A stretch of 64,000 nucleotides of DNA from Eubacteriales bacterium (GTDB lineage Bacteria; Bacillota; Clostridia; Oscillospirales; CAG-272): NCBI GenBank assembly GCA_045659905.1, contig JAZRCT010000020.1:194-64193 (forward strand), in the 5' to 3' direction. The notes beneath the pieces are model-generated. The model was not told where the DNA came from and ran no database searches. It saw only the letters and a program-made list of their open reading frames with translations. This document shows, piece after piece, positions 28,569 to 61,309 of this stretch. Each line of letters starts with the position of its first letter. The first letter of the stretch is position 1. A program made the translations under genes and the position numbers.

Positions 28569-28591
28569 CAAAAGAGATAAGGAGATAAAAG

Positions 28592-29539
28592 ATGTCACAG
28601 ACTAAAGAAGCAAACCGTCCGGTAAAGCGTTCTGAGGTCTCGAAGCTGCGTTGGACGTGGCAGGAAATGAAGAATAATAAGACGGCATACTTTATGCTTG
28701 CGCCGTTCTTTCTCCTCTTTATTATATTTACAATCCTGCCCGTTCTGCTCTCGATGATTTTGAGCTTAACCGACTTTAATATGTTGCAGATGCCGCAATT
28801 CCTCGGAATCTCCAACTTTATCCGTCTGTTCCTTGAAGACGATATATTTCTTCTTGCGTGTCAGAATACGTTAATATTTGCTGCGATTACAGGACCAGTT
28901 TCCTATCTTATTTCGTTGCTTATTGCGTGGTTCATCAACGAGCTTCCCCCGAAGATACGTTCGGTTGTAACCCTCGTATTCTACGCCCCCTCGATTTCAG
29001 GACAGGTTTACCTTATATGGAAAACCCTCTTCTCCTCGGACTCCTACGGTTGGGCGAATGCAACCCTTATAGACCTTGGAATTATAAACGAGCCTATCCT
29101 GTGGTTCCAGAATGCCGATTACGTAATGCCGCTTTGTATAGTGGTAGCGCTTTGGACCTCGCTTGGTACTGCATTCCTTTCGTTTATTGCAGGATTCCAG
29201 ACAATAGACCGTTCTATGTACGAGGCGGCTGCCGTTGACGGTATTAAGAACCGTTGGCAGGAGCTTTGGTACATCACACTTCCTACGATGCGTCCTCAGC
29301 TTATGTTCGGTGCCGTTCTAGCTATTACCAACTCGTTCGGCTTCGGTGCGGTAGTTGATGCGCTCTGCGGATTCCCGTCGGTAGATTATGCGGCGCATAC
29401 GATAATGCACCATCTTAATGACTACGGCGGACAGAGATACGAAATCGGTTATGCATCGGCAATAGCCGTAGTACTTTTCGTAATAATGTTCTCGGCGAAC
29501 GTTATTATCAAGAAGGTACTTTCGAAGGTAGGTGAGTAA
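28592..29539 (+). CDS. carbohydrate ABC transporter permease (MalF/UgpA-like), pair 1
   Basis: 315 aa, EAA loop YEAAAVDGIKNRWQELWYITLP. Confidence 0.9.
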   Translation: MSQTKEANRPVKRSEVSKLRWTWQEMKNNKTAYFMLAPFFLLFIIFTILPVLLSMILSLTDFNMLQMPQFLGISNFIRLFLEDDIFLLACQNTLIFAAITGPVSYLISLLIAWFINELPPKIRSVVTLVFYAPSISGQVYLIWKTLFSSDSYGWANATLIDLGIINEPILWFQNADYVMPLCIVVALWTSLGTAFLSFIAGFQTIDRSMYEAAAVDGIKNRWQELWYITLPTMRPQLMFGAVLAITNSFGFGAVVDALCGFPSVDYAAHTIMHHLNDYGGQRYEIGYASAIAVVLFVIMFSANVIIKKVLSKVGE

Positions 29540-29541
29540 GT

Positions 29542-30417
29542 ATGTCCAAAAAGCTTAGAACAAGAGGCCACAGAGTCGTTCTCAACCGCTCTGCCGGCGG
29601 CGATGCGGGCATTACCGTTATGCTCACCCTTATGGGACTGTTTATGTTCATACCTATGTATTACGTAGTAATTCAGTCCTTAAAGCCCCTCGATGAGTTG
29701 TTTATGTTCCCCCCGAAATTTTACGTAATCAGCCCTACGCTTGATAACTTTGCCGACCTTTTCACTCTTATGAGTGACTCTTGGGTACCGTTCTCAAGAT
29801 ACATATTCAACACCGTGTTTATTACTATCTGCGGAACTCTTGGCAACCTTATATTTGCATCGATGGCTGCGTATTCGCTTGCGAAGCTTCGTTTCCCCGG
29901 AAGAAACGCAATCTTCCAGATAATCGTCGCATCGCTTATGTTCCATTCTACGGTAAACCAGGTAACCCACTTTATCATTCTTTCCGCATTCGGCTGGATT
30001 GATACCTACCTTTCTATTATAGTACCCTCAATGGCTACTACGATAGGACTTTACCTTATGAAGCAGTTTATGGAAACGTCCGTACCCGATACGGTGCTTG
30101 AATCGGCACGACTTGACGGTGCGAGCGAATTCAGAACCTATCTTACAATAGCAATGCCGATGGTTAAGCCTGCGTGGCTTACGCTTATCATCGAGTGCTT
30201 CAAATCCCTTTGGAACTCCGGCTCTTCAATTTACATTCACTCTGAGGAGCTTAAAACGTTCAACTACGCAATTCAGCAGATTGTATCGGGCGGTATAGCC
30301 CGTTCGGGTGCCGGAGCTGCGGCAACCGTTGTAATGATGCTCGTGCCTATCCTCGTATTCGTTCTTAACCAGAGCCAGATTATCGAGACGATGGGTTCGT
30401 CGGGTATGAAGGATTAA
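29542..30417 (+). CDS. carbohydrate ABC transporter permease (MalG/UgpE-like), pair 1
   Basis: 291 aa, EAA loop LESARLDGASEFRTYLTIAMP. Confidence 0.9.
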   Translation: MSKKLRTRGHRVVLNRSAGGDAGITVMLTLMGLFMFIPMYYVVIQSLKPLDELFMFPPKFYVISPTLDNFADLFTLMSDSWVPFSRYIFNTVFITICGTLGNLIFASMAAYSLAKLRFPGRNAIFQIIVASLMFHSTVNQVTHFIILSAFGWIDTYLSIIVPSMATTIGLYLMKQFMETSVPDTVLESARLDGASEFRTYLTIAMPMVKPAWLTLIIECFKSLWNSGSSIYIHSEELKTFNYAIQQIVSGGIARSGAGAAATVVMMLVPILVFVLNQSQIIETMGSSGMKD

Positions 30418-30429
30418 GGAGGACTAGAA

Positions 30430-32619: not shown

Positions 32620-32640
32620 TGAAAGCGGAGGTAAATAATT

Positions 32641-35600
32641 ATGAAAATTAAAAAGTTAATATCGTCTGCTTTGACTATCGTTTTGCTGCTCGGCGCAATT
32701 CTTGCGGTCGTTACCGTATCTGCAAGCGCCGTATGCGATTCGACGTCGGCGACGGCAAATCTTTCCTCGGAACAGATAAAGGAGGTAGTTAACGCCTCTC
32801 TTGATTATGAATTCGAGACGGCAGAGGAAATGCTCGCATACGAGCTTTCTCTCGGTTACCTTGATTCTATGACTACCGCTGATAAGAAATTCAGTATGTA
32901 TGTCAACCGATACACCGGCTTGTTCTACTACGTTAATAACGTTACAGGTCAGATTCTGACGAGTAACCCCTCAAACGTTAAGGAATTCAACAACGGCAGT
33001 GTTGCAAAGCTCCTTATGAGCCAGATATCAATCGAATATATCGTCAACGCTACCAATAAGGAGAATACCGACTTCAATTCCACCGAGTGGGCAGCTCTTT
33101 ACTCTCAGATAAATACGAGCTTTATCTCGAACGGAATCAGAGTCAATTACACCCTCGGTGATACCACTACGAGATTCCTCCTTCCGGGAAGGATTCTTGC
33201 GGAGGATTACGAGGAGCTTGTGATTAAGCCTATGCTTCTCAGATTCGAGACGCTGCTTGAGACTCATCTGCGCTCGCTCGTTGAAGGCAATCCTAATTTC
33301 TCATTCTTCAACAATAGCGATTATGAGCCATATGAGTATGACTGCATCAGCTCTAAGGAGTATAAGAGATATGTTAGCGATATGGTATCTCTTGCGGGCG
33401 ATTATTACGGCAGAAATTCGGCAGAGCTTAAGGAAATCAAATCGGTTCAGACAGATATTCTTGCATTCTCCACTATGTTTTCTCTCAAGAACCCCAAGCA
33501 GTATGAGGAGACCGGTAAGACCGACAGTGCGACCTACAAGAATATGATTAAGTTCTACTATACTCCTCAGGAGGGCGTATCCGCCAACCTTGATATTTAC
33601 AATTCAAGCTCGGATGGATACCACGCTCCTATGTACGTATTCAAGGAGAGCGCAGTTACTGCGGAGAAGAGAGCTAACGCTGCAAGATGGAGAAAATACT
33701 GCCCCTCTTACACGTTTTCTGAAATGTTCGCAAGCGAAAAGGAGTGCGGCTATGTTGACGATTCCGAGCAGAAGCCGGTATTCAGATGCTCTCTTGAGTA
33801 TTCGTTCAACGAGGACGGAACTCTTTCGGTTCGCCTTCCTTCGAACTCCATCACCTTTGATGAAACCGTATACAGCCTCAAGGAGATAAGGCCCATTCAG
33901 TTCTTCGGAGCGGGCAATGTCAAAAACGACGGCTATATCTTCTTCCCTGACGGAAGCGGTACGATTGTTGATTTCAACGATTTCAATGACTACACCTTCA
34001 CTACCGAGAGCGCAATATACGGCAACGATTACGCATATTCGGCTCTTAGCGACACCAGCGCACACAGAGAGCAGGTCACTATGCCCGTCTTTGGTGTTGT
34101 AAACAGCATAAAGGCAAACGCTCTTACAAGCTCCCGCTTCGGCACTGAGACCGTTACTAACGGTTACTTTGCGATTCTCGAGGAGGGCGCATCTCTCGCT
34201 AAGCTTGGTTATATGGGCGGCGGCTCTCATAGCTATGCGGGCGCATACAGCGTCTATACTCCGTATCCTATGGATACCTACGACCTCTCCGAGACCATCG
34301 GCGTTGGCGGCTCGGGTGCGTATACGATAGTAGCAGAAACCAGGTACAACGGCTCTTACGTTACCAAGATAGTAATGCTTACAGACGATACCGTGGGTAA
34401 GGAATGCTATGGCAACAACGCTTATTACAGCGCATCTTACGTAGGTATGGCGGCTTGCTACCGTGACTATCTTAAGGCTGGCGGATATCTCAGCGCTCTT
34501 GAAAATATCAGCAAAGACCTTCCTCTTTATATAGAGGCTCTCGGCGCTATGGATATTACCACCAAAATCCTTTCGTTCCCTGTAACGCAGACTATTCCGC
34601 TTACTTCGTTTGACGACGTCCTTACTATGTATAATGAGATTTCCAATAATAAGGACACCTTCTTGAAGAAGGCAGAAGAATATGAAGCACTCGCTTTGGA
34701 GGTCAGCGAAACCTCTCTTAAGGAAAGCTACCTTAAGACCGCAGAGGGCTACCGTGCAATGGCAGAAACCGCAAAGAGCATTGAAAATATCAATTTCAGG
34801 CTTACAGGCTTCGCCAACGGCGGTATGCACTTCACCTATCCTGCTAAGGTAAGATGGGAAAGAGCCTGCGGCGGTAAGGATGCATTTGACAATCTTCTCA
34901 ACGAAGCAAAGAAGCTTTCTGACGAGGGCAAAAATCTTGGTATATACCCTGATTTTGATTTTATTTACATCAACAATACCGAGCTGTTCGACGGCGTTTC
35001 CAACAACAAGAACGTTTCGAGAATGGTTGATAACCGTTTCGCTTCCAAGCAGGAATACGATGCGGTGCTTCAGGAATACGTAACCTACTACACGCTCGTA
35101 GTAAATCCCGCTACCTTCGAGGAGCTTTACGGCAAATTCCTCAGAAAGTATTCGGCTCACGCTGCGACGGGAATTTCGGTTTCCACAATGGGCTCCGACC
35201 TTAACTCAAACTTTGACGAGGAGGACCTCACTAACAGAAGCGAGGCAGAGGCTTACGTTACCTCAATCCTTGCCAAGATGAAGAACGAGCAGGGCTACGA
35301 GATAATGGTAGATAAGGGTAATTCCTACACCTATAAGTACGTAAGACATATAATAGGTGCGGCTACCGATTCGAGCCATTACAGATATTCGTCTTACGCA
35401 GTTCCTTTCCTTGGAATGGTGCTTCACGGCTACGTAAATTATACCGGCGATGCGCTTAACTATGCAGGTACACCTCAGTATTACATTCTTCGTGCGATAG
35501 AGAATGGCGCAGCTCCTTACTACGTGCTCTGCTATCAGAACACCGGAAATCTTAAGGACGACGTTCTTCTCAGCAAGTACTACGGCGTTGATTACAACAC

Positions 35601-36270
35601 CTGGTTTGATTCTATCGTCACTACCTACGGCGAGCTTAACGCTGCAATAGGCGGACTTCAGAAGTACAACATCACAGACCACAAGATTATTCTCGGTGAG
35701 CGTGCGGTAGACGAGAACGAGCAGAATGCAAATTACGCAGCGCTTAAGGCAGAAATTATTGCTATGCTTGACGCTCAGATTGCTGAGGCTGTAAGAGTTG
35801 GCTACGAGTATCTTCAGAATAATGAAGCAAGCTCGGGAAGACCCCTTGCAGTATCGATAGATACAGACGCACTTATCGCTCAGTTCTGCGATATCCTTAA
35901 TCTTACCGCAGAGGAGCTTGTAGGCACGGCGGAGAAGCCCACTGCCTTCAAGACCGAAGTCGATGGTGTTGTAGCTAAGTATGAAGCTGAGTATCCTTCG
36001 GGTGGCACTAATCCTTACGTAGTAAGCTTTAGCGCCATTGAGTACGAGTCGCAGTATTCCTACATCACCGAGTCCTTGGCTACCGACGGTAAGAATTACG
36101 TTTATACCGACTACACCAGCGATATAAACAATATCGCAATGGTAACCTACTCGAATGGCACGGATAGCGTGACGTTTATTCTCAACTACAATATTTACTC
36201 CGTTACCGTTAAACTCGGCGATGGAGAAACCTACACAATCGGCAAGTACGATTATGTAAAAATAGACTAA
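32641..36270 (+). CDS. 1209-aa membrane-anchored extracellular protein, DUF5696-like (putative glycan-processing enzyme)
   Basis: N-terminal signal anchor. The DUF5696 assignment is from memory of similarly organised clusters and is not verified here. Confidence 0.6.
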   Translation: MKIKKLISSALTIVLLLGAILAVVTVSASAVCDSTSATANLSSEQIKEVVNASLDYEFETAEEMLAYELSLGYLDSMTTADKKFSMYVNRYTGLFYYVNNVTGQILTSNPSNVKEFNNGSVAKLLMSQISIEYIVNATNKENTDFNSTEWAALYSQINTSFISNGIRVNYTLGDTTTRFLLPGRILAEDYEELVIKPMLLRFETLLETHLRSLVEGNPNFSFFNNSDYEPYEYDCISSKEYKRYVSDMVSLAGDYYGRNSAELKEIKSVQTDILAFSTMFSLKNPKQYEETGKTDSATYKNMIKFYYTPQEGVSANLDIYNSSSDGYHAPMYVFKESAVTAEKRANAARWRKYCPSYTFSEMFASEKECGYVDDSEQKPVFRCSLEYSFNEDGTLSVRLPSNSITFDETVYSLKEIRPIQFFGAGNVKNDGYIFFPDGSGTIVDFNDFNDYTFTTESAIYGNDYAYSALSDTSAHREQVTMPVFGVVNSIKANALTSSRFGTETVTNGYFAILEEGASLAKLGYMGGGSHSYAGAYSVYTPYPMDTYDLSETIGVGGSGAYTIVAETRYNGSYVTKIVMLTDDTVGKECYGNNAYYSASYVGMAACYRDYLKAGGYLSALENISKDLPLYIEALGAMDITTKILSFPVTQTIPLTSFDDVLTMYNEISNNKDTFLKKAEEYEALALEVSETSLKESYLKTAEGYRAMAETAKSIENINFRLTGFANGGMHFTYPAKVRWERACGGKDAFDNLLNEAKKLSDEGKNLGIYPDFDFIYINNTELFDGVSNNKNVSRMVDNRFASKQEYDAVLQEYVTYYTLVVNPATFEELYGKFLRKYSAHAATGISVSTMGSDLNSNFDEEDLTNRSEAEAYVTSILAKMKNEQGYEIMVDKGNSYTYKYVRHIIGAATDSSHYRYSSYAVPFLGMVLHGYVNYTGDALNYAGTPQYYILRAIENGAAPYYVLCYQNTGNLKDDVLLSKYYGVDYNTWFDSIVTTYGELNAAIGGLQKYNITDHKIILGERAVDENEQNANYAALKAEIIAMLDAQIAEAVRVGYEYLQNNEASSGRPLAVSIDTDALIAQFCDILNLTAEELVGTAEKPTAFKTEVDGVVAKYEAEYPSGGTNPYVVSFSAIEYESQYSYITESLATDGKNYVYTDYTSDINNIAMVTYSNGTDSVTFILNYNIYSVTVKLGDGETYTIGKYDYVKID

Positions 36271-36288
36271 GAAGGAGGTAAATGAAAG

Positions 36289-37338
36289 ATGGATGAAAAC
36301 GTTGTTATGACCGAAGAAGCTGTTATGGCTGAAGCCGACGTTGCGAATGAAAATGGCGTAACGCCTGCCGACCTTGGCGGCTCTGCGGTAATAAATCCCG
36401 GCACGGGACTTCTCAGAACCCGTCGCAAAAAGGTTTCTCTTGATTCAAGAAAAGCGCGTGCAGGCTACATATTCACGCTGCCCTTTATTCTTGGTGTTCT
36501 TCTTATTTACCTTCCTATACTGCTCGACTCTGTTTGGTTCTCTCTCGGTAGAATAGACCCCGTCAACGTAGACGGCGTCCCCGGATTTGTAACCACCTGG
36601 GTTGGACTTGATAACTATATCAAGTCGATTACCGACGACGCAGGCTTCGTACAGAGCCTGCTCTCGGGAGTCCAGCAGCTTATATTTGAAGTGCCTGCGG
36701 TAATTATCTTCTCACTCTTTATAGCAGTAGTTCTTAACCAGAAAATGCTTGGTAGAGCAGTATTCCGTGCAATCTTCTTCGTTCCCGTTATTATATCTAC
36801 GGGACTTATGGAATCAATCAATGCGTCCGATATAGTCTCGGATTCCGCAGGCGGAATCAACGACGGCTCGGGCAGCAGCGCAGGCGGTATAGTATCTACG
36901 CTTGAAATCGAGCGCCTTTTCGCGACGATGCAGATAGGCGGCGAGCTTGTTACCTACGTCGTAGACCTCGTTAATAAGATTTACGATATTATCAACTACT
37001 CGGGCGTTCAGATGCTTATCTTCCTTGCAGGACTTCAGTCGATATCTCCCGCTATCTACGAGGCTTGTCAGATAGAGGGTGCTACCGGCTGGGAAACCTT
37101 CTGGAAGATTACCTTCCCGATGATTTCTCCTATGATTCTCGTAAATGCGGTATATACCGTTATCGACTCGTTTACAAGAGCTGAGAATATAACAATGAAG
37201 TATATCTCCGGTGTTTATATCCGGAGCCCCGAAATATCAACTGCAATGGCTTGGATTTACTTCCTCGTCGTCGTGCTTATCATAGCTGCGGTTGCGGGTA
37301 TAGCTTCAACGTTCATCTTCTATCAGAGGAAGGATTAA
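36289..37338 (+). CDS. carbohydrate ABC transporter permease, pair 2 (acidic N-terminal extension)
   Basis: 349 aa, EAA loop YEACQIEGATGWETFWKITFP. Confidence 0.85.
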   Translation: MDENVVMTEEAVMAEADVANENGVTPADLGGSAVINPGTGLLRTRRKKVSLDSRKARAGYIFTLPFILGVLLIYLPILLDSVWFSLGRIDPVNVDGVPGFVTTWVGLDNYIKSITDDAGFVQSLLSGVQQLIFEVPAVIIFSLFIAVVLNQKMLGRAVFRAIFFVPVIISTGLMESINASDIVSDSAGGINDGSGSSAGGIVSTLEIERLFATMQIGGELVTYVVDLVNKIYDIINYSGVQMLIFLAGLQSISPAIYEACQIEGATGWETFWKITFPMISPMILVNAVYTVIDSFTRAENITMKYISGVYIRSPEISTAMAWIYFLVVVLIIAAVAGIASTFIFYQRKD

Positions 37339-37351
37339 GGAGGTGGATGAT

Positions 37352-38401
37352 ATGAGTAAACAGATTGTTAAAGAAACAAAGAATAAAATCAGAGTTGACT
37401 ACGAGGGCAAGCTTTCGCTTAAAGAAAGATTCTTAAGCAAAGCAAAGACCTTTAATACCTGGATTAAGGTAGTAGTAAATATCTTCCGCTTTGTTCTTAT
37501 GATTGGCGTATCCTACGTTATCCTTTATCCCTTCTTTGCGAGAATCGCAGGCTCCTTTATGACGAGACAGGACGTTCTTGATGCTACGGTTTCGCTTATA
37601 CCGAAGAATTTTACTCTTGAAATATATAAGTATATTATCGTAGAGAATAATTACTTCGATGCGCTCTGGCACACGATACTTATCTCGCTTCTTTGCGCAC
37701 TTGCACAGACTCTCGTGGCTTGTCTTATCGGCTACGGACTTGCAAAGTTCAAGTTCAAGGGTAATAAGCTTATAATGGGCGTGGTTGTCTTCACGATGAT
37801 TATTCCTCATAAGACGCTCCGTCTTGCAATAGTAAAGCATTTCACGATGTTCGACTTTATGACGGTTCAGTCCTGGAATATGAAGGGAATTATCGAGCTG
37901 CTTACGGGCGATACAATCGAGCTTGTTAACAGTGCGTGGCCGTTGGCTATCCTCTCAATCTTCGGACTTGCGTTTAAGAACGGACTGTATATATACCTTA
38001 TGCGTCAGTTCTTCAAGGGCGTCCCCGATGAGCTTGAGGAGAGTGCATACGTTGACGGCTCGGGCGTGTACCGTACCTTCTTCCAGATAATCCTTCCGCT
38101 TTCAATCCCGATGATGATTACTATATTCCTGTTCTCGTTCTCATGGCAGTGGACCGACGAATTCTACACTACGCTGTTCTGGGACGATAACGTGAATAAG
38201 TTCTATCTGATGCCGGATATCTATAAGACCATACCTGAGACCTTGGCGCAAAGGTACGAGGATCTTGCAGGTTGGGCAGTGTATAAGAACGTAGTTCAGA
38301 ATACTGCGGCAATGCTTATCATTCTTCCGCTGGTAATTATGTACTTGTTCTGCCAGAGATATCTCGTTCAGGGAATTGAGCGTTCGGGTATTGTTGGATA
38401 A
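37352..38401 (+). CDS. carbohydrate ABC transporter permease, pair 2
   Basis: EAA loop EESAYVDGSGVYRTFFQIILP. AAGGAGG RBS 8 nt before the ATG at 37352. The ORF-track GTG at 37343 lies inside the RBS. Confidence 0.85.
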   Translation: MSKQIVKETKNKIRVDYEGKLSLKERFLSKAKTFNTWIKVVVNIFRFVLMIGVSYVILYPFFARIAGSFMTRQDVLDATVSLIPKNFTLEIYKYIIVENNYFDALWHTILISLLCALAQTLVACLIGYGLAKFKFKGNKLIMGVVVFTMIIPHKTLRLAIVKHFTMFDFMTVQSWNMKGIIELLTGDTIELVNSAWPLAILSIFGLAFKNGLYIYLMRQFFKGVPDELEESAYVDGSGVYRTFFQIILPLSIPMMITIFLFSFSWQWTDEFYTTLFWDDNVNKFYLMPDIYKTIPETLAQRYEDLAGWAVYKNVVQNTAAMLIILPLVIMYLFCQRYLVQGIERSGIVG

Positions 38402-52087: not shown

Positions 52088-52288
52088 GGGCACAGAAGCA
52101 AAAAAATGTATTTTATTTCGTATTTTATGCATAAAAACTCATACCCGAAAAGCGCCTTGCACGCAAAATCGGCGGGACTTTGCAAAAACATCTTCTGCAT
52201 CATACTTCCTATATATCCGATTGGCTTTGCGAAATGCGGGACTGATATGCCTAAGTCATACCGAATAAGGCTTTGATATACCGTTAAA

Positions 52289-52320
52289 ATCTCCCGATTC
52301 TTCGGGGGATTTTTTCTTTT
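52289..52320 (+). terminator. orphan plus-strand intrinsic terminator in a divergent intergenic region
   Basis: ATCTCCCGA-ttct-TCGGGGGAT (9 bp, one G-U pair) followed by TTTTTCTTTT. There is no annotated plus-strand gene upstream. Confidence 0.6.
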
Positions 52321-52410: not shown

Positions 52411-52439
52411 TTTTCTTTCCTCGCTTGCGGTGATATAAT
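52411..52439 (+). promoter_or_regulatory. extended -10 promoter of the giant surface-protein gene
   Basis: TGaTATAAT at 52431-52439. The -35 is weak (TTTTCT). Confidence 0.4.
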
Positions 52440-52471
52440 TCTTAGGAAAATATTACCAAAAGGAGAGAAAA

Positions 52472-55400
52472 ATGTTTATCTTAAAGCTTGCAAGACTTTT
52501 AGTCCTGCTTATTTTCGGAGTTGCCTCGTCCATAGGAGGAAATGCGCAGTCTTTCGAATATAGCTCGGAATATACAGTAAGCCTTTGCTCGTATGAAACG
52601 AGCGCCGAGTATACCTTAGAGAGCGGCGGCGACTGTTATATCCTGAAATGCGGCGAATCCGAAAGCCGCTTTTCAGAACCCTACGAGGCGATAAATTCCT
52701 TGCCCGACGGAGCAGAGCTTAAATTATGCGCACTTTCCTGCGGCGGCGGAGTAATCGAGCGCTCACTCACGCTAAGCGGCGAGCTTACCGTCACGTCGGG
52801 CAATCTTGCGATTCTCGGCGGTACTGTTACTATTGATGGGATTTCCTTAGAGCTTAAATCGGGCGGCGTCATTATCAAGGACGGTGAGCTTCTGATAAAC
52901 GGCGGTGAGCTTCATTCCTATGCGGCTGAGGCGATTTCCTTATCCTCAACCTCCTCCTCGCTCCTCGTTTCGGGCGGAGAAATTTACTCCGAAAATGCTT
53001 CTGCGATAAGAAACACGCTCGGCAGAGTAATAATTTCGGGCGGTAAAATAAGCTCACGGTATACAAATTGCGTGTATAACTGCTCAGAGCTTATAATATC
53101 GGGCGGCAGTCTTACGTCAGAGCTCCCCGAAATTTCAAGCTCCGTGCCAATATTCCTATCGCACGGCGGCGATTATTTTTCGGAAAGGCTGAGAGTTGAA
53201 TACCGAGAGGGCTTTAAGAAGGGAAAAATTACTCCCGTTTTCTTGGGGGCAAGCGCAGCGCAGGCAGAGCTTATTTCGGTAAGCGATAGCTCGGGCGAGG
53301 AATATCCGCTTTCCTTTACCCTAAGCTCCGAGAGCCTGCTTCTGGATTGCTTTCTTTCGGTAAATCTGCCCTACGAGGTGAAATTTTATCACGGTGACGA
53401 GCTGCTCCTTTCCTCTTATCTCTACGACGGAGAAGCTCTTTCACAGCCGAGTGTCAGCGCTCCGACAGGATACTCGCTCTTTGGGTGGTACACCGATTAT
53501 ACGCTTAGTGAAAGATATGCGTTCGGTATGGGCGTAAGCGGAGATTTGTCACTCTTTTCGGAATTTCGGCTGATACCGCCGAGCTTTGAAATTTCAAGCC
53601 TTTCCTTTACCTACGATAAGGCATCTCACCTCTTAGCCTTTGACAGAATATATCACCCCTGCCTCGACGAGGGAAAGCTCTACTATAAGTGGTATAAGGA
53701 CGGAGCTGTAATCAGCTCAAAGGAGATGCTTGAATTATCCAAGGTTTCGGATAGCGGAAGCTATAAATGTGAACTTACATTTACCTATAACGGCGATTTC
53801 AGCTATTCCGTTACCCCCGAATTGAATGTAGAAATATTCCCGAAGCTCGTTGAAATATCCCCACCGGCGAGCAAGGAATACACAGGCGAAATACTGTATC
53901 CCGACATAGCCGAATCCGAGCTCTATTACAGCGATTTTAAGGGCGGAGTTGAGGCTGGCGTATACGAGGTTATTCTTACTATGCACGACGGTGAAAATTA
54001 CCGCTTTTCCGAAGGGGTATCCCCAAGCCTTACGCTTAATTTTTCCATAACCCGTGCTAAAAACTATTTCACCGAAATATCCGTCGCCGAGGAATATTTT
54101 ATCGGTACTCCGTTTGACGCCGTATTCCGCACCCGCTTCGGTACGCCGAGGCTGCTGTTTTCGCTTGAGAGCGGGCAGGGCTTTAGCGATAAATTCCCAA
54201 GCGAGGCAGGGGAGTATTACCTTATGGCGTCGGTCGACCCTTGCGAGAGCTTTGAGGGTGTCACAAGCTCGCCTATTCCGTTTAGCCTAAAAGAAGACTC
54301 GCTGATATCGCTTGATTTGCTTACACCGCCGACTAAGCTTTCATACCTTGCGTTTGAATTTGTCAGCCTTGAGGGAATTTCGCTTGAGGCAACCTATCTT
54401 AGCGGCGTTAAGACCGAGGTTCCCGCATCTCTCATTAGCGTAGAATATAAGAATTCCTACGGTCTTTCGGTGACCGACCGCTCCGTCACGCTTTCCTACC
54501 TTGATTTAGCGATACCGCTCTCGGTTAGCGTTTCCCCCTGCGATTACGATATTTCGGGGATAGAATTCAGCGACAAAAGCCTGCCATTTTGCGGTAAGTG
54601 GCAAACCTTAAGCGCCGCAGGGAAAATCGTAGGCAAGGACGGTAAGGAGCTTTTGATGTCACTTAGAGGCGGCGGAGTAAATGCAGGCAGATACACCGTG
54701 AGCCTTGAATTTACCTCGCAAAGCCTTAATTACAATACGCCGCCTACGCTTTACAGGACGCTTGATATCACCCCGCTTGAGGTAGTATGCGAGTATTCAA
54801 ATCTTGAATTTATCTACGACGGCAGCGTAAAAGCGCCGAGCGCCGCTGCTTACGGAGTGAATTCCTTACCTCTTTCGGTGAGGGTTGAATCCGTGTTCAT
54901 CGATGCGGGGAGCTATACAGTAAGTGCCGTGCTTCCCGACGGTAATTACAGGCTTAAAAATCCCTCCGTCAGCTTCGTTATAAAAAAAGCACCCCTTAAT
55001 CTTTCGGGAGCGAGGCTTTCGGAAAGTAGCTTTATCTACGACGGTAAGCCTAAAAGCGTGTCGCTCGTCGGACTTCCCGAGGCGGTTTATGCGGTGGGAT
55101 ATCTCGATTCGGTATACACCGAGGCAGGGGATTATCTTGCGAGAGTAAGCCTTTCCTTCGACGAAAGAAACTATTATCTCGATTCGCAGCTTTCCTATAA
55201 ATGGAGCATAGCCAAGGCAGAGTACGATATGTCGGGTATTGAATTTCTTGATACCGAGGTTGTCTACGACGGAAAATCCCATACGCCAAGAGTGGTAGGA
55301 AGACTTCCCGTCGGCGCTGACGGAAGCTCGCCGGAATACCGATTTTTAAATAGCGTGTGCGACGTCACCGGTGACGGCGTATCGGTGACAGCGGTATTCT

Positions 55401-57265
55401 CCACCGATAGCAAGAATTATAACGCCCCGAAAAGCATAACGAGGTCGGTGCTTATAACTCCCCTTGAAATCGAGGTAGTCTGGGAGGGACTGCGGCAGAC
55501 CTTCAGCGGCGCTTCTATATGCGCCACGGCAGCCTCCGAGCTTTGCGAAATCGAAGTTACGGGTGGCGGCGTTGATGCAGGCAGCTACACCGTCACCGCT
55601 GCCCCGAAAAGCCGAAATTACAGTATAAAAAACGCCCTTGCCACCCTGATAATAGAAAAATGCCAAAACGAATTTCTATCACAGCCTAGCATTCTTTCGG
55701 CGTATTTCGGCGACCGCCTAATCAAGGAGGGCAGCACGAAATACGGAAACGCCGTGTTCTCGTTCTACCTTGATAAAGCGCTGACGCAACCGATAGACGA
55801 GCCGTATGAGGTCGGAGAATATTATATGACCGTAAGCGCCCCCGAGGGGATAAACTATCTTGCGATAGTAAGCGAGCCGATAAAATTTTCTATACTAAAG
55901 GTTCTGCCGATAGGGCTGATGGGCGAAGTGAAAAAGGAGGTGCTTTTGGCGCTTGACCGAATAGCAAGCGAGGATATCGAGGTCAGCTTCGTCAATAACA
56001 ACGGTACTTTTACGAAAATTCCGTTTTCAAAGCTTAAGGTAAGCTACCGAAGCGGGGATTCGCTTCGCTACGGGGATAACGAAATAGGAATATCCGCAGG
56101 CGGATTTTATACTACGCTTGGCATAAGGGTAGCACGCAGAAGCTACGATATGGAGGAGGCAAGATGGGAAAATACGCACCATACCTACGACGGTGAGGAA
56201 AAGACGGCTAACGTAGTAGGGCTGCCCTCGGGCGTCAGCGTCAAGAAATATATATTAAACAAGGCGACGAATGCAGGCGAATACAGGCTTTCTTGCATAT
56301 TTGAATATGACAGAGAAAATTATAACGATCCGAAAATAGCCGAAGCAAGCCTCGTTATATATAAAAAGGAGCTAAAGCTGCCAAATGGCGCTGTATATAC
56401 CTACGATAAGGAAATAAAGCGGCTTTCGGTTGCCGATACGGATTACTATATCGGCGGCGAGGTGTACGGGACCGAGAGTGGTAAATATAGACTAGCCCTC
56501 ACTCTTAGGGATAGCGAAAATTATTGCTTTTCGGGCGGTGACTCGAGCGTCACGCTTGAAATTTTGCCAAGAGAAATAACGCTCAGGGTAAATCAGGATT
56601 TTGACAGCTATACGCTGATAGACGGCAGTATTATAGACGATGACGATATCGGCGTAAAATACGAGCAAATAGGTAATTTTGTATATATAAGCTTACAAAA
56701 TCCCAACTATAAAGCAACAGTAATACCGAGAAATGTAAATGATAAATCGGGTAATCTATGGATACTTTTGCTGATTGCCGCCGTTGCCGTATTCCTTTTC
56801 CTTTTAGGGTATTTTATCTATAAGAAAAGGCAGGAGATACGCCTTACCACGGCTGGAGCGCACGGAAGTGCAGACGGAGCAGCTAACACGGGAAAAGAAC
56901 AAAACCTCACGGCAACGCTAATGTGCGTAGACAGAGCGTATGCCGATAGCCTGATTTCAAATAGCCTTGCAAAAACTCTGAGGAAAAAGAGCGAGAGCGA
57001 AATAGAAAGCTCTGGCAGAGGACTTGCAAAAATATCGCTGGGGGCTATTTCGTCAGCCTTTGAATCGGGGGATTTGGTCGATATAAATGCGCTTAAAGAA
57101 AAAATGCTGATTTCAAGCGAGGCGGGAAAAATCAGAATAACCGCAGACGGCGTAATAGATAAGCCACTTAAGGTATACGCCGATTCCTTTGCGCCCTCGG
57201 CGCTAAAAATGATTGCTCTTACGGGCGGTGAAAGCTTTACAGTAAAGAAAAAACGCAAAATTTGA
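52472..57265 (+). CDS. 1597-aa surface repeat protein (beta-helix-like N-terminus, Listeria-Bacteroides repeat, more than 10 MBG/YDG-type repeats), C-terminal TM anchor and uL15-like cytoplasmic tail
   Basis: Signal peptide. GYSLFGWYTD repeat. Recurring ..YDGK.K.P...GLP....AG.Y.V......NY......I.KA.L units. TM helix LWILLLIAAVAVFLFLLGYFIY, then KKRQ. The tail aligns by eye with the C-terminal half of uL15. Confidence 0.85.
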   Translation: MFILKLARLLVLLIFGVASSIGGNAQSFEYSSEYTVSLCSYETSAEYTLESGGDCYILKCGESESRFSEPYEAINSLPDGAELKLCALSCGGGVIERSLTLSGELTVTSGNLAILGGTVTIDGISLELKSGGVIIKDGELLINGGELHSYAAEAISLSSTSSSLLVSGGEIYSENASAIRNTLGRVIISGGKISSRYTNCVYNCSELIISGGSLTSELPEISSSVPIFLSHGGDYFSERLRVEYREGFKKGKITPVFLGASAAQAELISVSDSSGEEYPLSFTLSSESLLLDCFLSVNLPYEVKFYHGDELLLSSYLYDGEALSQPSVSAPTGYSLFGWYTDYTLSERYAFGMGVSGDLSLFSEFRLIPPSFEISSLSFTYDKASHLLAFDRIYHPCLDEGKLYYKWYKDGAVISSKEMLELSKVSDSGSYKCELTFTYNGDFSYSVTPELNVEIFPKLVEISPPASKEYTGEILYPDIAESELYYSDFKGGVEAGVYEVILTMHDGENYRFSEGVSPSLTLNFSITRAKNYFTEISVAEEYFIGTPFDAVFRTRFGTPRLLFSLESGQGFSDKFPSEAGEYYLMASVDPCESFEGVTSSPIPFSLKEDSLISLDLLTPPTKLSYLAFEFVSLEGISLEATYLSGVKTEVPASLISVEYKNSYGLSVTDRSVTLSYLDLAIPLSVSVSPCDYDISGIEFSDKSLPFCGKWQTLSAAGKIVGKDGKELLMSLRGGGVNAGRYTVSLEFTSQSLNYNTPPTLYRTLDITPLEVVCEYSNLEFIYDGSVKAPSAAAYGVNSLPLSVRVESVFIDAGSYTVSAVLPDGNYRLKNPSVSFVIKKAPLNLSGARLSESSFIYDGKPKSVSLVGLPEAVYAVGYLDSVYTEAGDYLARVSLSFDERNYYLDSQLSYKWSIAKAEYDMSGIEFLDTEVVYDGKSHTPRVVGRLPVGADGSSPEYRFLNSVCDVTGDGVSVTAVFSTDSKNYNAPKSITRSVLITPLEIEVVWEGLRQTFSGASICATAASELCEIEVTGGGVDAGSYTVTAAPKSRNYSIKNALATLIIEKCQNEFLSQPSILSAYFGDRLIKEGSTKYGNAVFSFYLDKALTQPIDEPYEVGEYYMTVSAPEGINYLAIVSEPIKFSILKVLPIGLMGEVKKEVLLALDRIASEDIEVSFVNNNGTFTKIPFSKLKVSYRSGDSLRYGDNEIGISAGGFYTTLGIRVARRSYDMEEARWENTHHTYDGEEKTANVVGLPSGVSVKKYILNKATNAGEYRLSCIFEYDRENYNDPKIAEASLVIYKKELKLPNGAVYTYDKEIKRLSVADTDYYIGGEVYGTESGKYRLALTLRDSENYCFSGGDSSVTLEILPREITLRVNQDFDSYTLIDGSIIDDDDIGVKYEQIGNFVYISLQNPNYKATVIPRNVNDKSGNLWILLLIAAVAVFLFLLGYFIYKKRQEIRLTTAGAHGSADGAANTGKEQNLTATLMCVDRAYADSLISNSLAKTLRKKSESEIESSGRGLAKISLGAISSAFESGDLVDINALKEKMLISSEAGKIRITADGVIDKPLKVYADSFAPSALKMIALTGGESFTVKKKRKI

Positions 57266-57284: not shown

Positions 57285-57313
57285 TTGAAAAAATGCAACC
57301 TCGGTGCTATAAT
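57285..57313 (+). promoter_or_regulatory. sigma-A promoter of the ECF-S-like gene
   Basis: TTGAAA-17 nt-TATAAT with a TGc extension. The leader is short, with no room for a riboswitch. Confidence 0.55.
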
Positions 57314-57340: not shown

Positions 57341-57937
57341 GTGAAAAATAAAATCAATATAAGAAAGCTCACCTATCTTGCAATGCTTACAGCGCTCGTA
57401 GTAGTGCTTCAGCTGGCGATAGCTCCGCTTATCGGCTCGCTTACGGGACTTTCGCCCGCTTTGGTGCTCGTTCCGATTATGCTCGGCGTGGCAGCTATGG
57501 GTATTGGCGGCGGCGCTTGGCTTGCTTTCGTATTTTCATTCATAGTTCTTTTCGACCCGACGACCGTGCCTTTTCTTGAATTTAATCCATTCCTTACGGT
57601 GCTTTTGGTTTTCGTTAAGGGAGTAGGCTCTGCGGTGCTTTCGGGACTTATTTTCAAGCTTCTTCAGAACAAGAATAGAATTCTCAGCCTTGCGCTTGCA
57701 TCGGTGTGTATGCCGATATTTAATACAGGCATATTCGTCGTTGGCTGTCTTTTATTCTTCCGTGAGCTTACGGGAGTTGGCATATATGCGCTCTTTACCT
57801 CGGTTAATTTTATAATCGAGCTTGTAATCAATCTTACGCTCGTTCCCGCTATCCACCACCTGCTTTTGATTTCGGGCGTGCTTAAGGATAACGCAAATAA
57901 GCCTTCCTCGGTCGATTCCGAGAATAGCGAAAATTAA
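57341..57937 (+). CDS. ECF transporter S-component-like membrane protein (substrate unknown)
   Basis: 198 aa, 5-6 TM helices, N-terminus ..IRKLTYLAMLTALVVVLQL typical of S components. GTG start with a GAGGT RBS. Confidence 0.55.
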   Translation: MKNKINIRKLTYLAMLTALVVVLQLAIAPLIGSLTGLSPALVLVPIMLGVAAMGIGGGAWLAFVFSFIVLFDPTTVPFLEFNPFLTVLLVFVKGVGSAVLSGLIFKLLQNKNRILSLALASVCMPIFNTGIFVVGCLLFFRELTGVGIYALFTSVNFIIELVINLTLVPAIHHLLLISGVLKDNANKPSSVDSENSEN

Positions 57938-57949
57938 ATAAAAAGGGAA

Positions 57950-57981
57950 GAGGACAGCCCCTGAGTATTAGGGCTGTCCTC
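57950..57981 (+). terminator. GC-rich hairpin after the ECF-S-like gene
   Basis: Perfect 11-bp stem GAGGACAGCCC / GGGCTGTCCTC. There is no T tract, so termination efficiency is uncertain. Confidence 0.35.
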
Positions 57982-57991
57982 AATTCAGATT

Positions 57992-58669
57992 ATGCCGAAA
58001 ATCATATATAAGGACGAAAATATAGTAGTAATAGACAAGCCCGTCGGTATGCCCTCGCAAAGCGATATGAGCCGTGACACCGACGCTATGACGGCGACCT
58101 CTAAGCTTCTTTCTGCTGCGGGCGAGGATGGCAATCTCTTTTTGATTCACAGGCTTGACAGAGGGGTTGGCGGACTTATGGTGTTTGCGAGAAATAAGCG
58201 ATGCGCAGCCGAGCTTTCCTCTGCTATACAAAACAGGAGCTTTTCTAAGGAATATCTTGCGGTAGCTAAGGGAATACCCGAGGATGGCGTATATACGGAT
58301 TATCTCTTTAAGGATAGCGCCTCTAATAAATCCTACGCCGTAAGGACAGAGCGCCGAGGAACGAAATACGCCGAGCTTTCGCTGTCGAAAATAGCCACCC
58401 GCACGCTTGACGAGGGCGCAAAGACGCTGGTCAGAGTAAAGCTTTCTACGGGCAGACACCACCAGATAAGAGTTCAGCTTTCAAGCCGCAAAACGCCTCT
58501 TGTGGGCGATAAGAAATACGGCGGCGGTGACGCTTTGAGCGGGGGCGTTGCGCTTTTTGCTTTTTCCTTAAGCTTCAATATGCTGGGCAAGGAATACTCG
58601 TTTTTTGCTAAGCCAAATACCGATAAATACCCTTGGAAAATCTTTAAGGACGAGGTTGATTCTATATGA
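57992..58669 (+). CDS. RluA-family pseudouridine synthase (no S4 domain)
   Basis: 225 aa, VIDKP.GM and HRLDRGVGGLMVFA catalytic-Asp motif. Confidence 0.85.
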   Translation: MPKIIYKDENIVVIDKPVGMPSQSDMSRDTDAMTATSKLLSAAGEDGNLFLIHRLDRGVGGLMVFARNKRCAAELSSAIQNRSFSKEYLAVAKGIPEDGVYTDYLFKDSASNKSYAVRTERRGTKYAELSLSKIATRTLDEGAKTLVRVKLSTGRHHQIRVQLSSRKTPLVGDKKYGGGDALSGGVALFAFSLSFNMLGKEYSFFAKPNTDKYPWKIFKDEVDSI

Positions 58670-59808
58670 CCGAAAAGCTATATTATAAGGACGCTTACGT
58701 AAAGGAATTTACGGCAACGGTGCTTTTTTGCCGTGAGCTTTGCGGAAAATACGAGGTAATACTGGATAGGACTGCCTTTTTCCCCGAGGAGGGCGGTCAG
58801 AGCGCCGATACGGGCTTTATAAATTCCATACCCGTAATAGCCGTAAAGGAGCGTGAGGGGATTATATATCACACCCTTGAGCGTGCCGTTTCGGTCGGGG
58901 AATGCGTATTTTGCAGTCTTGATTTTAAGTCTCGCTTTTCAAAAATGCAGATACATACCGCCGAGCATATCCTCTCAGGACTTTTTCATAGCGAGTACGG
59001 TATAGAAAACGTCGGCTTCCGTCTTGGGGAGGGCGAGGTTACTATGGATACCTCTGCCCCCGTATCCGAGGAGATGGCAGACCGAATAGAGGCGCTTGCC
59101 AACGAAGCGGTATTTTCAAATAAGCGTGTAAGTGCGAAAATATATTCGCAAGAGGAAATAGGGGATAAGAAATACCGAGCAAAGCTTGAATTTTCCTCCG
59201 ACGTGCGCCTCGTCGAGATTGAGGGCGTCGACCTTTGCGCCTGCTGCGCTCCCCACGTCGCAAGGACGGGCGAGATAGGAATAATCAAGATTTTGAGGCT
59301 TGAAAGTCATAAGGGCGGCACACGCATATACATTCTGGCAGGTGAGAGAGCCTACCTTTATACAAAGGAGCTTTATAAGACTGCGCAAAGGGCATCGGCT
59401 ATGCTATCTGCGCCTCCTATTTCGATAGATAAGGAAATAATGAAGCTCATAGAGGCAAAAGCGAATACCGAAAGGTCGCTATCCTTGCTGAGAGAGGAAT
59501 ATGCGCTCGCCTCCGTCAACGCTTGTATAAAGAGCGAGGGGGATCTCGTCTTGTATTTTGATTTTGCGACGAGAGCGGAGCTTCGCACGGCGGTAAAGGC
59601 TATGAAGGAGCGTGCGGGCGGTATCGCCGTAGCCTTGGGTAAGGCAGAGCGCGGATACAGCTTCGTTATGCTCGGCGACGGCGATATTTCGGCAGAGGTC
59701 AAAAAAGCTACCGCCGCCCTTATGGGAAAGGGCGGCGGCAGAGGAAATATGGCAGAGGGAAGCTTCGGCGCTCCACTCGATGAAATAACCCAATATTTTA
59801 AGGGTTAA
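58666..59808 (+). CDS. alaX: alanyl-tRNA editing protein AlaX-L type
   Basis: 380 aa. Editing-domain zinc motifs HTAEH and CACCAPH. C-terminal DHHA1-like GKGGGRGNMAEG. ATGA overlap with the upstream gene. Confidence 0.8.
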   Translation: MTEKLYYKDAYVKEFTATVLFCRELCGKYEVILDRTAFFPEEGGQSADTGFINSIPVIAVKEREGIIYHTLERAVSVGECVFCSLDFKSRFSKMQIHTAEHILSGLFHSEYGIENVGFRLGEGEVTMDTSAPVSEEMADRIEALANEAVFSNKRVSAKIYSQEEIGDKKYRAKLEFSSDVRLVEIEGVDLCACCAPHVARTGEIGIIKILRLESHKGGTRIYILAGERAYLYTKELYKTAQRASAMLSAPPISIDKEIMKLIEAKANTERSLSLLREEYALASVNACIKSEGDLVLYFDFATRAELRTAVKAMKERAGGIAVALGKAERGYSFVMLGDGDISAEVKKATAALMGKGGGRGNMAEGSFGAPLDEITQYFKG

Positions 59809-59816
59809 GGTTTTTC

Positions 59817-60308
59817 TTATTCCTTAAAGGTAAGAGTGATTGAATCGGTATTCGAGCTTAGCTTCGTGAGCTTCACGCCTGCTGCGGCAAGCATGCGCTT
59901 GGAATTCTTCGTCGAGGGGGTGTCTGCGTACTTGTCGGAAAGATACACAACCTCTCTTATTCCTGCCTGAATTATAGCCTTAGCGCATTCGTTGCAGGGG
60001 AAAAGTCCTACGTATACGGTAGAGCCGACGAGCGACTTTCCACGGGTGTTAAGTATTGCGTTAAGCTCGGCGTGTACGACGAAGGGATACTTCGTCTCGC
60101 CCTCGCTTTCGTCACGTCCCCAGGGGAATTCGTCGTCAGAGCAGCCCTTGGGAAAGCCGTTGTAGCCGGTAGAGAGTATGCGGTTGTTCTCGTCGACGAT
60201 GCAAGCGCCGACCTGAGTGCTTGGGTCCTTTGAGCGCTTTGCGGCAAGCAGAGCCACGCCCATAAAGTATTCGTCCCAGCTGATATATCCTTCTCTTTTC
60301 TTAGTCAT
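59817..60308 (-). CDS. comEB: dCMP deaminase (ComEB-type)
   Basis: HAELNAI and PCNECAK zinc motifs. The ATG at 60308 has a GAGGT RBS and lies downstream of the promoter at 60342-60371. The ORF-track start at 60386 is upstream of that promoter. Confidence 0.85.
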   Translation of the reverse strand: MTKKREGYISWDEYFMGVALLAAKRSKDPSTQVGACIVDENNRILSTGYNGFPKGCSDDEFPWGRDESEGETKYPFVVHAELNAILNTRGKSLVGSTVYVGLFPCNECAKAIIQAGIREVVYLSDKYADTPSTKNSKRMLAAAGVKLTKLSSNTDSITLTFKE

Positions 60309-60341
60309 ATCATACCTCATATAATAATCGGATTTTTTCTT

Positions 60342-60371
60342 TAGTATAGCATCAAAATATAGCCTTGTCAA
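60342..60371 (-). promoter_or_regulatory. sigma-A promoter of the dCMP deaminase gene
   Basis: Minus strand reads TTGACA-18 nt-TATACT with a TGc extension. Confidence 0.5.
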
Positions 60372-60430
60372 TATTTCTTTTGGCAAATTCGGGGCTGAAA
60401 GCGAATGAAATCGAAGGGAGTGAGCGGCAA

Positions 60431-61309
60431 ATGTATTCTGAATGTATGCTCTGCGAGCGTATGTGCCGTGTAAACAGAAGCGCAGGCGAGACAGGCTTTT
60501 GCAGGTCTTACGGTTTGCCTAGGGTGTCGCTTTCTCAGCTTCACTTTTACGAAGAGCCTATAATTTCTGGCAAAAGTGGCTCCGGCGCTATCTTCTTTTC
60601 GGGCTGCTCGCTTGCCTGCTCCTACTGCCAGAATAGCGAAATATCAAGAGGAGCGGTAGGTAAGGAGGTCGACTGCGACGAGCTTGCCACCCTTATGCTT
60701 GCGCTTGAGGCAGAGGGCGCTCACAATATAAATTTCGTCACCCCAACGCATTTTTCACCCTCTGTCGCAGAAGCGATTGATATATCAAGAGCGAGAGGGC
60801 TTAAAATCCCGATAGTCTACAACACCTCAAGCTACGAGAGTGAGGCTGCGCTTCGTAGGCTTGACGGGAGAGTGGAGGTCTATCTTCCCGACCTTAAATA
60901 TTACCGAGCTGCGCTCGCCGAAAAATATTCAGCCGCAAGGAATTATCCCGAGGCAGCAAGGCGCAATATAGATATAATGCTTAAGCAAAGAGGTAAATTC
61001 CGTCTTAATAAAGAGGGAATAATAGAGAGCGGTGTGGTAGTAAGGCTTCTGCTTTTGCCCTCGGCGCTGGCCGATACGAAGCTGAATCTTAAATACCTCT
61101 ACGACCGCTACGGCGACGATATCTATATAAGCCTTATGAGCCAGTATACCCCAAATGAAAGACTTGCGCCGCCGCTCAACCGCAGAGTGACTAAGTCTGA
61201 GTACGACGAGCTTCTCGAATACGCCTACAAGCTTGGCGTAAAATATGCATTTACTCAGGATAAGTCCAGCGCAAGCAAAATTTACACGCCCGACTTTGGT
61301 GGCGATTAA
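60431..61309 (+). CDS. radical SAM protein, PflX-like (pyruvate formate-lyase activase-related)
   Basis: CSLACSYCQN, a CX3CX2C motif. AAGGGAG RBS before the ATG at 60431. Confidence 0.8.
   Translation: MYSECMLCERMCRVNRSAGETGFCRSYGLPRVSLSQLHFYEEPIISGKSGSGAIFFSGCSLACSYCQNSEISRGAVGKEVDCDELATLMLALEAEGAHNINFVTPTHFSPSVAEAIDISRARGLKIPIVYNTSSYESEAALRRLDGRVEVYLPDLKYYRAALAEKYSAARNYPEAARRNIDIMLKQRGKFRLNKEGIIESGVVVRLLLLPSALADTKLNLKYLYDRYGDDIYISLMSQYTPNERLAPPLNRRVTKSEYDELLEYAYKLGVKYAFTQDKSSASKIYTPDFGGD

Follow-up and report, generated by a model that had tools for sequence, protein, structure and literature searches.

Architecture of the giant membrane protein

We analyzed a 64,000-nucleotide stretch from an Eubacteriales bacterium (contig JAZRCT010000020.1), referred to here as the window, in which a single open reading frame (ORF) at 52472–57265 (+), stop codon included, encodes a 1597-residue protein with the predicted layout of a type-I membrane protein and a C-terminal domain homologous to that of the ribosomal protein uL15 (RplO). 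An earlier note, made from the DNA letters alone, had drawn attention to this resemblance. Translation of 57014–57262 (+), GRGLAKISLGAISSAFESGDLVDINALKEKMLISSEAGKIRITADGVIDKPLKVYADSFAPSALKMIALTGGESFTVKKKRKI, exactly matches the 83 residues quoted there and places them at the C-terminus of the giant protein.

The protein begins with a Sec-type signal peptide (approximately residues 1–25, MFILKLARLLVLLIFGVASSIGGNA, 52472–52546 (+); the cleavage site is approximate), and an N-terminal hydrophobic segment is found in nearly all complete orthologs. The extracellular region that follows (residues 26–1428, 52547–56755 (+)) consists of a Gly-rich, β-helix-like N-terminal part and of repeated Ig-like, MBG and Listeria-Bacteroides-type repeats. 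According to Pfam, MBG_3 is present in three stretches (38.3 bits against a cut-off of 25), and the matches to Flg_new (residues 301–361) and Ig_2 (residues 405–439) lie under their cut-offs. Repeat number varies across the family, the shorter orthologs having the same ectodomain with repeats deleted internally or at the N-terminus. A single transmembrane (TM) helix (residues 1429–1450, LWILLLIAAVAVFLFLLGYFIY, 56756–56821 (+)) is followed by the flank KKRQEIR. The signal peptide together with a stop-transfer helix bearing this positive flank predicts that the tail lies on the cytoplasmic side, as the earlier note had proposed. Sortase anchoring was rejected: no LPXTG motif precedes the TM helix (the preceding sequence reads ...NVNDKSGNLWILLL...), and the "tail" that follows the helix is 147 residues long and contains a folded domain.

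The cytoplasmic part opens with a variable low-complexity linker (residues 1451–1485, 56822–56926 (+)) whose length differs widely across the family and whose identity to orthologs, computed like that of all segments against 51 full-length sequences, is 0.12. It is followed by a family-specific extension (residues 1486–1514, VDRAYADSLISNSLAK..., 56927–57013 (+); identity 0.44), the uL15 C-terminal-domain homolog (residues 1515–1587, with the PF00828 envelope at 1521–1587; 57014–57232 (+)) and a short basic C-terminal tail (residues 1588–1597, TVKKKRKI, 57233–57262 (+); identity 0.17). The extension comprises helices (ADSLISNSLAK..L) and the first strand of a β-hairpin, and its columns A, I, A, L and G are invariant in the alignments. 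It lies outside the Pfam/uL15 match, packs on the uL15-like domain in the AlphaFold2 model with a predicted local distance difference test score (pLDDT) of 81–91, and is also present in the non-giant branches of the family. Averaged over 80 family members, the approximately 15 residues that follow the domain have a net charge of +3.4.

At 0.50, the identity of the uL15-like domain is the highest in the protein, compared with 0.32 for the ectodomain and 0.20 for the TM helix. The earlier note had named a tail unconserved among orthologs as grounds for dropping its proposal, and the tail turned out to be the best-conserved segment. The spacing of about 60 residues given there between TM helix and domain also stands, at 64 residues, but 29 of these (1486–1514) are not linker and belong to the conserved extension. 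Residues 1486–1597 constitute an autonomous, strongly conserved module of 112 residues, a unit of approximately 110 amino acids.

Homology of the module to uL15

PF00828 matched residues 1521–1587 over profile positions 2–70 of 72 with 28.3 bits (gathering cut-off 21.5 bits), the E-value being 2.4e-6 when the whole protein was searched and 9e-8 when the search was confined to the tail; no other Pfam family was found in the tail. Searching PDB sequences with the single tail, phmmer returned uL15 chains only, with those from Enterococcus, Listeria and Staphylococcus at the top (E 3e-4 to 6e-3). The best match, residues 73–142 of E. faecalis uL15 (6o8w_M, E = 3.1e-4), contained one single-residue gap over 70 residues, in agreement with the alignment without large gaps described earlier. 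Using a profile built from nine family sequences, the best E-value against PDB sequences was 2.4e-9, and all 81 matches were uL15 or eL18. The AlphaFold2 model, covering a 118-residue module, had a pLDDT of 87.7 and a predicted template-modeling score (pTM) of 0.81. Its top 50 Foldseek matches in the PDB were all uL15 or eL18 chains of ribosomes (probability 0.98–1.00), the shorter core alignments giving root-mean-square deviations of 1.1–2.6 Å over 69–78 columns. These results confirm that the tail is a true homolog of the uL15 C-terminal domain, with a similarity well beyond chance, and the proposal that a ribosomal-protein fold has been recruited as an intracellular module was right on both structural and evolutionary grounds.

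The hallmark residues pointed out in the earlier note are indeed common to the tail and uL15, the module keeping the polar signature N-x-D, K-V-L, G, K, F-S-x-x-A and GG. Seven columns are occupied by Lys or Arg in at least 80% of sequences in the giant (n = 168) and non-giant (n = 46) branches alike, three of them in common with E. faecalis uL15. Other invariant motifs are the family's own and have no uL15 counterpart, namely IDKPL, A-V-K-M-I-A-L-T-G-G and a conserved Asp in the preceding helix. Net charge was discarded as a discriminator of RNA binding, since Firmicutes uL15 C-terminal domains are approximately neutral themselves (−1 to 0, compared with −1 for the window core and a family mean of +2.4).

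TIGR01071 aligned over positions 71–142 of 144 only and scored 22.9 bits with the whole protein and 27.7 bits with the tail alone, against an equivalog cut-off of 77.95 bits; the Gly/Arg-rich N-terminal half of uL15 is absent, as noted before. Given the missing N-terminal 70 residues, the failed equivalog score, the wrong size and the wrong locus (the neighbors are aro genes, an energy-coupling factor (ECF) S-component, rluA and alaX), the gene is not the housekeeping rplO, a point on which the earlier note was correct, and the module-bearing protein is not a ribosomal protein. Because of its membrane tethering and the absent extension, the giant protein is very unlikely to be a stoichiometric component of the 50S subunit. 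The comparisons show the module to be a diverged paralog of the globular C-terminal domain of Firmicutes-type uL15, which has lost the N-terminal half that threads into ribosomal RNA (rRNA) and gained the helix/hairpin extension and the basic tail. Its best canonical matches are Firmicutes uL15 sequences, which fits an origin by duplication of the 3′ half of rplO within Firmicutes.

Conservation and distribution of the family

A scan of one genome per species yielded 134 relatives, and uL15-like tails on other large surface proteins, a possibility raised in the earlier note, were thereby found in at least that number of species-level genomes. The 80 relatives for which loci were fetched and retained belong to uncultured gut Clostridia, Eubacteriales, Oscillospiraceae and 'Ruminococcus' metagenome-assembled genomes (MAGs) and have one copy each at the fetched locus. 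Essentially every complete locus contained an ORF of 680–1830 residues with an N-terminal hydrophobic signal and the module at the extreme C-terminus, and nearly all complete orthologs had one TM helix 40–190 residues upstream of the module. Orthologs from independent MAGs aligned end to end with the whole window protein at 34–39% identity. With the E-value threshold set at 1e-3, a full HMMER pass over a representative library of 1.84 billion proteins gave 2522 matches, of which 1371 also passed a threshold of 1e-10 and 232 one of 1e-30. The best 150 all had E-values better than 1e-40, and most of these were 1500–1800 residues long. Metagenomes contributed relatives on 375 stretches. These searches show that the module defines a large, unnamed PF00828 subfamily, always located at the extreme C-terminus. 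Its members are widespread among uncultured Clostridia from the human and ruminant gut.

Family alignments contained 24–28 invariant columns. The window copy aligned over the full module (the A-D-x-L-I-x-D-x-x-A helix, the hairpin, IDKPL and A-x-K-M-I-x-L-T-G-G) and kept approximately 19 of the approximately 23 columns that are at least 95% conserved, the changes being T→S, K→R, L→T and S→A. Its PF00828 score of 28 bits compares with 43–52 bits in other members. By sequence, the window copy has diverged somewhat from the rest of the family but is intact.

No relatives were found in IMG/VR contigs and BFVD gave no significant structural match, on which grounds a viral origin was rejected. Canonical rplO was absent from the fetched loci, a result that applies to these loci only; likewise, tblastn with the tail detected neither a second copy nor rplO in the whole window, and Rfam and tRNA scans of the window were empty, with no rRNA, tRNA or ribosomal-protein genes within it. 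Public names of family members are automated, 'uL15 family ribosomal protein' being used for MBQ9080868.1 (1177 residues) and MBR2965343.1 (838 residues) and 'ribosomal protein L15/L18E' for others, and neither Pfam nor NCBIfam holds a model dedicated to the module. The earlier note knew of no described function for such a fusion; in line with this, we found no description of a uL15-tail fusion in the literature searched, where papers on PF00828, Ribosomal_L27A or uL15-like proteins dealt with marker-gene uses only.

Several metagenomic relatives were defective. P0016 is a chimera that joins a UvrD-helicase N-terminus to the last 60 module residues, P0015 is also an evident chimera of metagenomic assembly or gene calling, and in P0270 an internal part of the module is missing. 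On contigs shorter than 2 kb, many 'small' relatives are 5′-truncated pieces of giant genes.

Other architectures and split gene pairs

The module sits behind three kinds of N-terminal region: a giant ectodomain with a TM helix, a short TM anchor with an acidic repeat linker, or a soluble basic peptide. We distinguish four types, all scoring above the PF00828 cut-off. Type A comprises the giant type-I surface proteins. Type B proteins (340–540 residues) consist of an N-terminal TM anchor, a long acidic EEPV-type repeat linker and the module, usually together with a domain of approximately 150 residues, termed domain X, and an IPYE..R..LI motif. Type C proteins are soluble, span approximately 200–280 residues, carry a basic N-terminal motif (KIVLKRKKS..TYL) and charged repeats, and belong to the 'Firmicutes bacterium CAG:313' lineage; type D comprises soluble proteins with domain X. 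The numerous type C loci (L081–L083, L086–L087 and many among L091–L169) are highly variable in the number of EEPVV or EEKRLAEE repeats, and one type C member is named '50S ribosomal protein L15' by NCBI.

Domain X has the consensus YRRSF..LIQ...SW....F..G....K....K.L.lY.ALDP...KY, followed by IPYE..R..LI, and precedes the module in most short members. It was located in L128 (5443–5916), L132 (5446–5919 and 10509–11531), L101, L105, L116, L121, L138–L147, L161 and L166, the second L132 gene carrying it without the module. No relatives of domain X were found in Pfam, NCBIfam or PDB sequences; a homology search gave two close relatives, and AlphaFold2, run on a four-sequence alignment, returned a pLDDT of 49.

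In four loci from at least two lineages (L121 3–6164, L139 1–5843, L140 2–6324 and L166 2–6330), a giant type-I surface-protein gene is followed after 0–12 nt by a type B gene encoding the TM helix, acidic linker, domain X and module, with the ribosome-binding site of the second gene lying inside the end of the first. The upstream frame spans at least 1474–1676 residues, contains Ig/MBG-like repeats or seven Listeria-Bacteroides repeats, and ends with a TM helix and a short basic tail. The window protein is the fused form of such a split pair. Since the module is fused to giant surface proteins in one lineage and encoded by an adjacent gene in another, it is functionally tied to them.

In L128 (4846–6342) and L132 (4717–6342), a Listeria-Bacteroides repeat occurs at residues ~65–111, directly after the N-terminal TM helix (TIGR02543 36 bits, Flg_new 32.9 bits). 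This places a normally extracellular repeat on the predicted cytoplasmic side, which is unusual; the repeat may be left over from an earlier ectodomain, or the topology of these proteins may be different at this point.

Expression signals and gene neighborhood

The putative expression signals of the giant gene, read from the sequence, lie at 52431–52467 (+). They consist of a ribosome-binding site, AAGGAGAG (52460–52467 (+)), with the ATG 4 nt further on, and of an extended −10-like element, TGATATAAT (52431–52439 (+)), approximately 30 nt further 5′. The consensus promoter scan found no −35 match for this element and therefore did not list it. Both are probably the gene's own signals. The same scan detected a strong promoter-like site at 57285–57313 (+), TG-extended and with 11 of 12 matches (TTGAAA-17-TATAAT), between the stop codon of the giant gene and the next gene, which argues for separate transcription of the downstream genes. 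Taken together, the upstream signals and the promoter-like site after the stop suggest that the giant gene is probably transcribed alone. A terminator-like hairpin with a 12-bp stem and a T-run was noted at 52286–52313 (+), in the intergenic region that separates the giant gene from the divergently oriented pheA (minus strand), approximately 160 nt 5′ of the giant ATG. No convincing gene end is found at the hairpin, which could be a leader, an attenuator or a bidirectional insulator.

Downstream, and as context only, Pfam and synteny across the clade define a block at 57341–61309 that encodes an ECF S-component (57341–57937), an RluA-type pseudouridine synthase (57992–58669), an AlaX-like editing protein (58666–59808), a tadA-like deaminase (59817–60386, minus strand) and a radical S-adenosylmethionine (SAM) protein (60365–61309); the rluA and alaX genes of the window overlap by 4 nt. 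Across the 80 fetched loci, on which all neighborhood counts rest, rluA was present downstream in 76 and alaX in 71. The tadA gene followed in 59 loci and a radical-SAM gene in 58, and 38 had the ECF S-component gene inserted. The genes upstream in the window are pheA, aroB, aroC and aroE/K, and this side is not conserved across loci. An operon of the rluA/alaX/tadA/radical-SAM genes was rejected in view of the opposite-strand genes, the ECF insertion in half of the loci and the separate promoter-like site, and we read the block as lineage synteny.

The soluble branch shows the order gmk-rpoZ-peptidase M32-module gene-rpsL-rpsG-fusA-tuf; its loci represent one genus-level lineage (RpsL 95–100% identical), and one member has no rpsL downstream. 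The remaining branches have unrelated neighboring genes. Gene context thus neither proves nor excludes a link to translation.

Elsewhere in the window, a same-strand cluster at 24945–38401 encodes a 1207-residue protein without a Pfam match, a 1209-residue DUF5696 protein, a 729-residue Yip1/NHL-repeat membrane protein and several components of ATP-binding cassette (ABC)-type permeases. It may be a locus for uptake or processing of polysaccharides or oligosaccharides.

Candidate functions of the module

We tentatively favor, with a probability of roughly 0.4, a role of the module as a membrane-tethered dock for RNA or large ribosomal subunits. As a docking domain, the module would keep a conserved cytoplasmic partner at the membrane, and this partner would be a structured RNA, most probably large-subunit rRNA or 50S/pre-50S particles. 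The family would then comprise membrane-tethered ribosome- or RNA-binding factors, in which the giant proteins couple the dock to a cell-surface structure. Such a partner is favored because all solved relatives of the fold are rRNA-binding ribosomal proteins (uL15/eL18), the polar signature of uL15 is retained, and the seven conserved Lys/Arg positions are joined by a basic C-terminal tail; precedent is provided by the membrane-anchored proteins YqjD, ElaB and YgaM, which bind the 50S subunit (bioRxiv 10.1101/2024.08.16.608256). In the fold-usage tables of PMC11354259, eL18 is listed under CATH fold 3.100.10, named after ribosomal protein L15. Binding of ribosomes or RNA in trans is possible. 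It is rather unlikely, in our estimate, that the module still recognizes large-subunit rRNA specifically, either at the uL15 site on uL15-free pre-50S particles or at another site on 50S/70S. If it did, Firmicutes would have in this family a new class of membrane-tethered factors that bind ribosomes, and the giant proteins would physically link a surface fiber to ribosomes, ribosome assembly or hibernation at the membrane. The uL15/eL18 fold would then have its first non-ribosomal job.

Several observations weigh against docking of RNA or ribosomes. The ancestral site on the mature 50S subunit is taken by the resident uL15, the rRNA-threading extension is absent from the module, and the gene neighborhood gives no consistent link to translation. 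Moreover, compared with six canonical uL15 sequences, the giant branch has replaced VKA by VYA and KFS by DFS, VKA being kept in non-giant branches, and the long acidic linkers of the anchored branch would repel RNA. The occupied site, lost extension, replaced lysines and acidic linkers, along with a layout of TM helix, linker and globular domain like that of ZipA, would be explained equally well if the uL15-derived fold had been re-used as a protein–protein adaptor with no RNA role, which binds a cytoplasmic protein, possibly a cytoskeletal, divisome or cell-wall-synthesis component, and positions the giant surface protein. We regard such an adaptor as nearly as likely as the dock, if uncertain in itself. 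Many family members combine an anchor, a disordered acidic linker and a C-terminal globular domain; the invariant motifs absent from uL15 (IDKPL, A-V-K-M-I-A-L-T-G-G and the helix Asp), the loss of canonical lysines in the giant branch and the presence of domain X beside the module in most anchored members also speak for it, and the coupling to giant surface proteins suits a positioning role. On the other hand, no candidate partner turned up in our analysis, the seven conserved basic positions and the basic tail are more typical of binding to an anionic ligand, and the PDB and Foldseek matches included no solved relative of the fold with a non-RNA partner.

Two further explanations are far less probable. 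One role that the earlier note had considered for the tail is tethering of the translating ribosome or the translocon (SecYEG) while its own 1600-residue protein is exported co-translationally, an idea that draws on the ancestry of the domain and its location at the membrane only. It did not hold: the final 336 nt of the gene encode the module, which, as the last 110 residues made, emerges after the ectodomain and TM helix, so that no action in cis during export is possible. The module is also found on ectodomain-less proteins, both those with a short N-terminal stub outside the cell and soluble ones, and in four loci it forms a polypeptide separate from the giant protein. We therefore consider docking for its own export very improbable. 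Slightly more improbable still is an artifact or relic, that is, a mis-assembly or frameshift into an rplO fragment, a decaying rplO pseudogene, or a real uL15 present as a fusion. Annotation pipelines do call relatives 'uL15 family ribosomal protein', 'ribosomal protein L15' or 'L18E', and a few metagenomic relatives are evidently chimeric (P0016, P0015), but the same fusion recurs in more than 50 full-length orthologs from independent MAGs, no other part of the protein is as strongly constrained as the tail, and the gene encodes no N-terminal half of uL15, misses the TIGR01071 cut-off by 50 bits and does not lie in an spc operon. The dock for RNA or large ribosomal subunits remains our preferred explanation.

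Comparison with known systems

The closest known relative is uL15 itself, whose C-terminal α/β domain is homologous to the module with approximately 30–35% identity over ~70 residues (Enterococcus, Listeria, Staphylococcus). N-x-D-x-L, K-[VI]-L..G and L.V.A..FS..A...I...GG are kept and the predicted fold is the same. In contrast to uL15, which is a stand-alone protein of ~145 residues encoded in the spc operon and starts with the Gly/Arg-rich rRNA-threading extension (residues 1–70), the window protein has 1597 residues, is encoded at an aro/ECF-S/rluA/alaX locus, and presents a low-complexity linker, a TM helix and an ectodomain upstream of the module, which is membrane-tethered and has its own N-terminal helix/hairpin and invariant motifs. 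The archaeal and eukaryotic eL18/L18e is also a paralog of the uL15 globular domain and gave weak profile and Foldseek matches; it is a stand-alone ribosomal protein and much less similar to the tail than bacterial uL15. A PF00828 member by homology that fails three defining features of uL15, the module represents a paralogous, non-ribosomal subfamily placed in new architectures.

In every solved structure retrieved, the uL15/eL18 fold occurs in ribosomes only. A large, conserved non-ribosomal subfamily means that this fold has been exapted, and it offers a defined object for probing what the isolated domain binds. It also exposes an annotation problem, as pipelines label module proteins 'uL15 family ribosomal protein', 'L15' or 'L18E'. 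Genome counting and phylogenomics both make use of PF00828 as a single-copy marker (PMC10102025, PMC3663571), so that the module paralog can register as a second L15 in these genomes.

YqjD, ElaB and YgaM resemble the module proteins in that a cytoplasmic domain held by a single TM helix binds the 50S subunit, a functional analogy that holds only if ribosome docking is right. They are, by description, unrelated in sequence and fold, are C-tail anchored with an N-terminal binding region, have no ectodomain, and act at the tunnel exit rather than at the site of uL15. Tethers of the ZipA type offer a second analogy. ZipA, a gammaproteobacterial protein that binds FtsZ, is anchored by a TM helix at its N-terminus and carries a globular binding domain at the C-terminal end of its linker. 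Short members of the module family appear to share this layout, their linker being long, charged and flexible; there is no sequence relationship between ZipA and the family.

Finally, the window protein belongs in the company of giant MBG, Listeria-Bacteroides and Ig-like surface proteins, with which it shares a signal peptide, MBG_3 and a variable repeat number. Typical proteins of this kind are anchored by LPXTG/sortase or by wall-binding domains, whereas here a TM helix leads to a conserved 112-residue cytoplasmic module; and whereas typical adhesins are variable, the window-type gene is present in one copy at each fetched locus and is syntenic across the clade. It is a core envelope protein whose most conserved part is intracellular, which suggests transmembrane coupling rather than a simple adhesin, and the alternation between fused and adjacent genes supports this independently.

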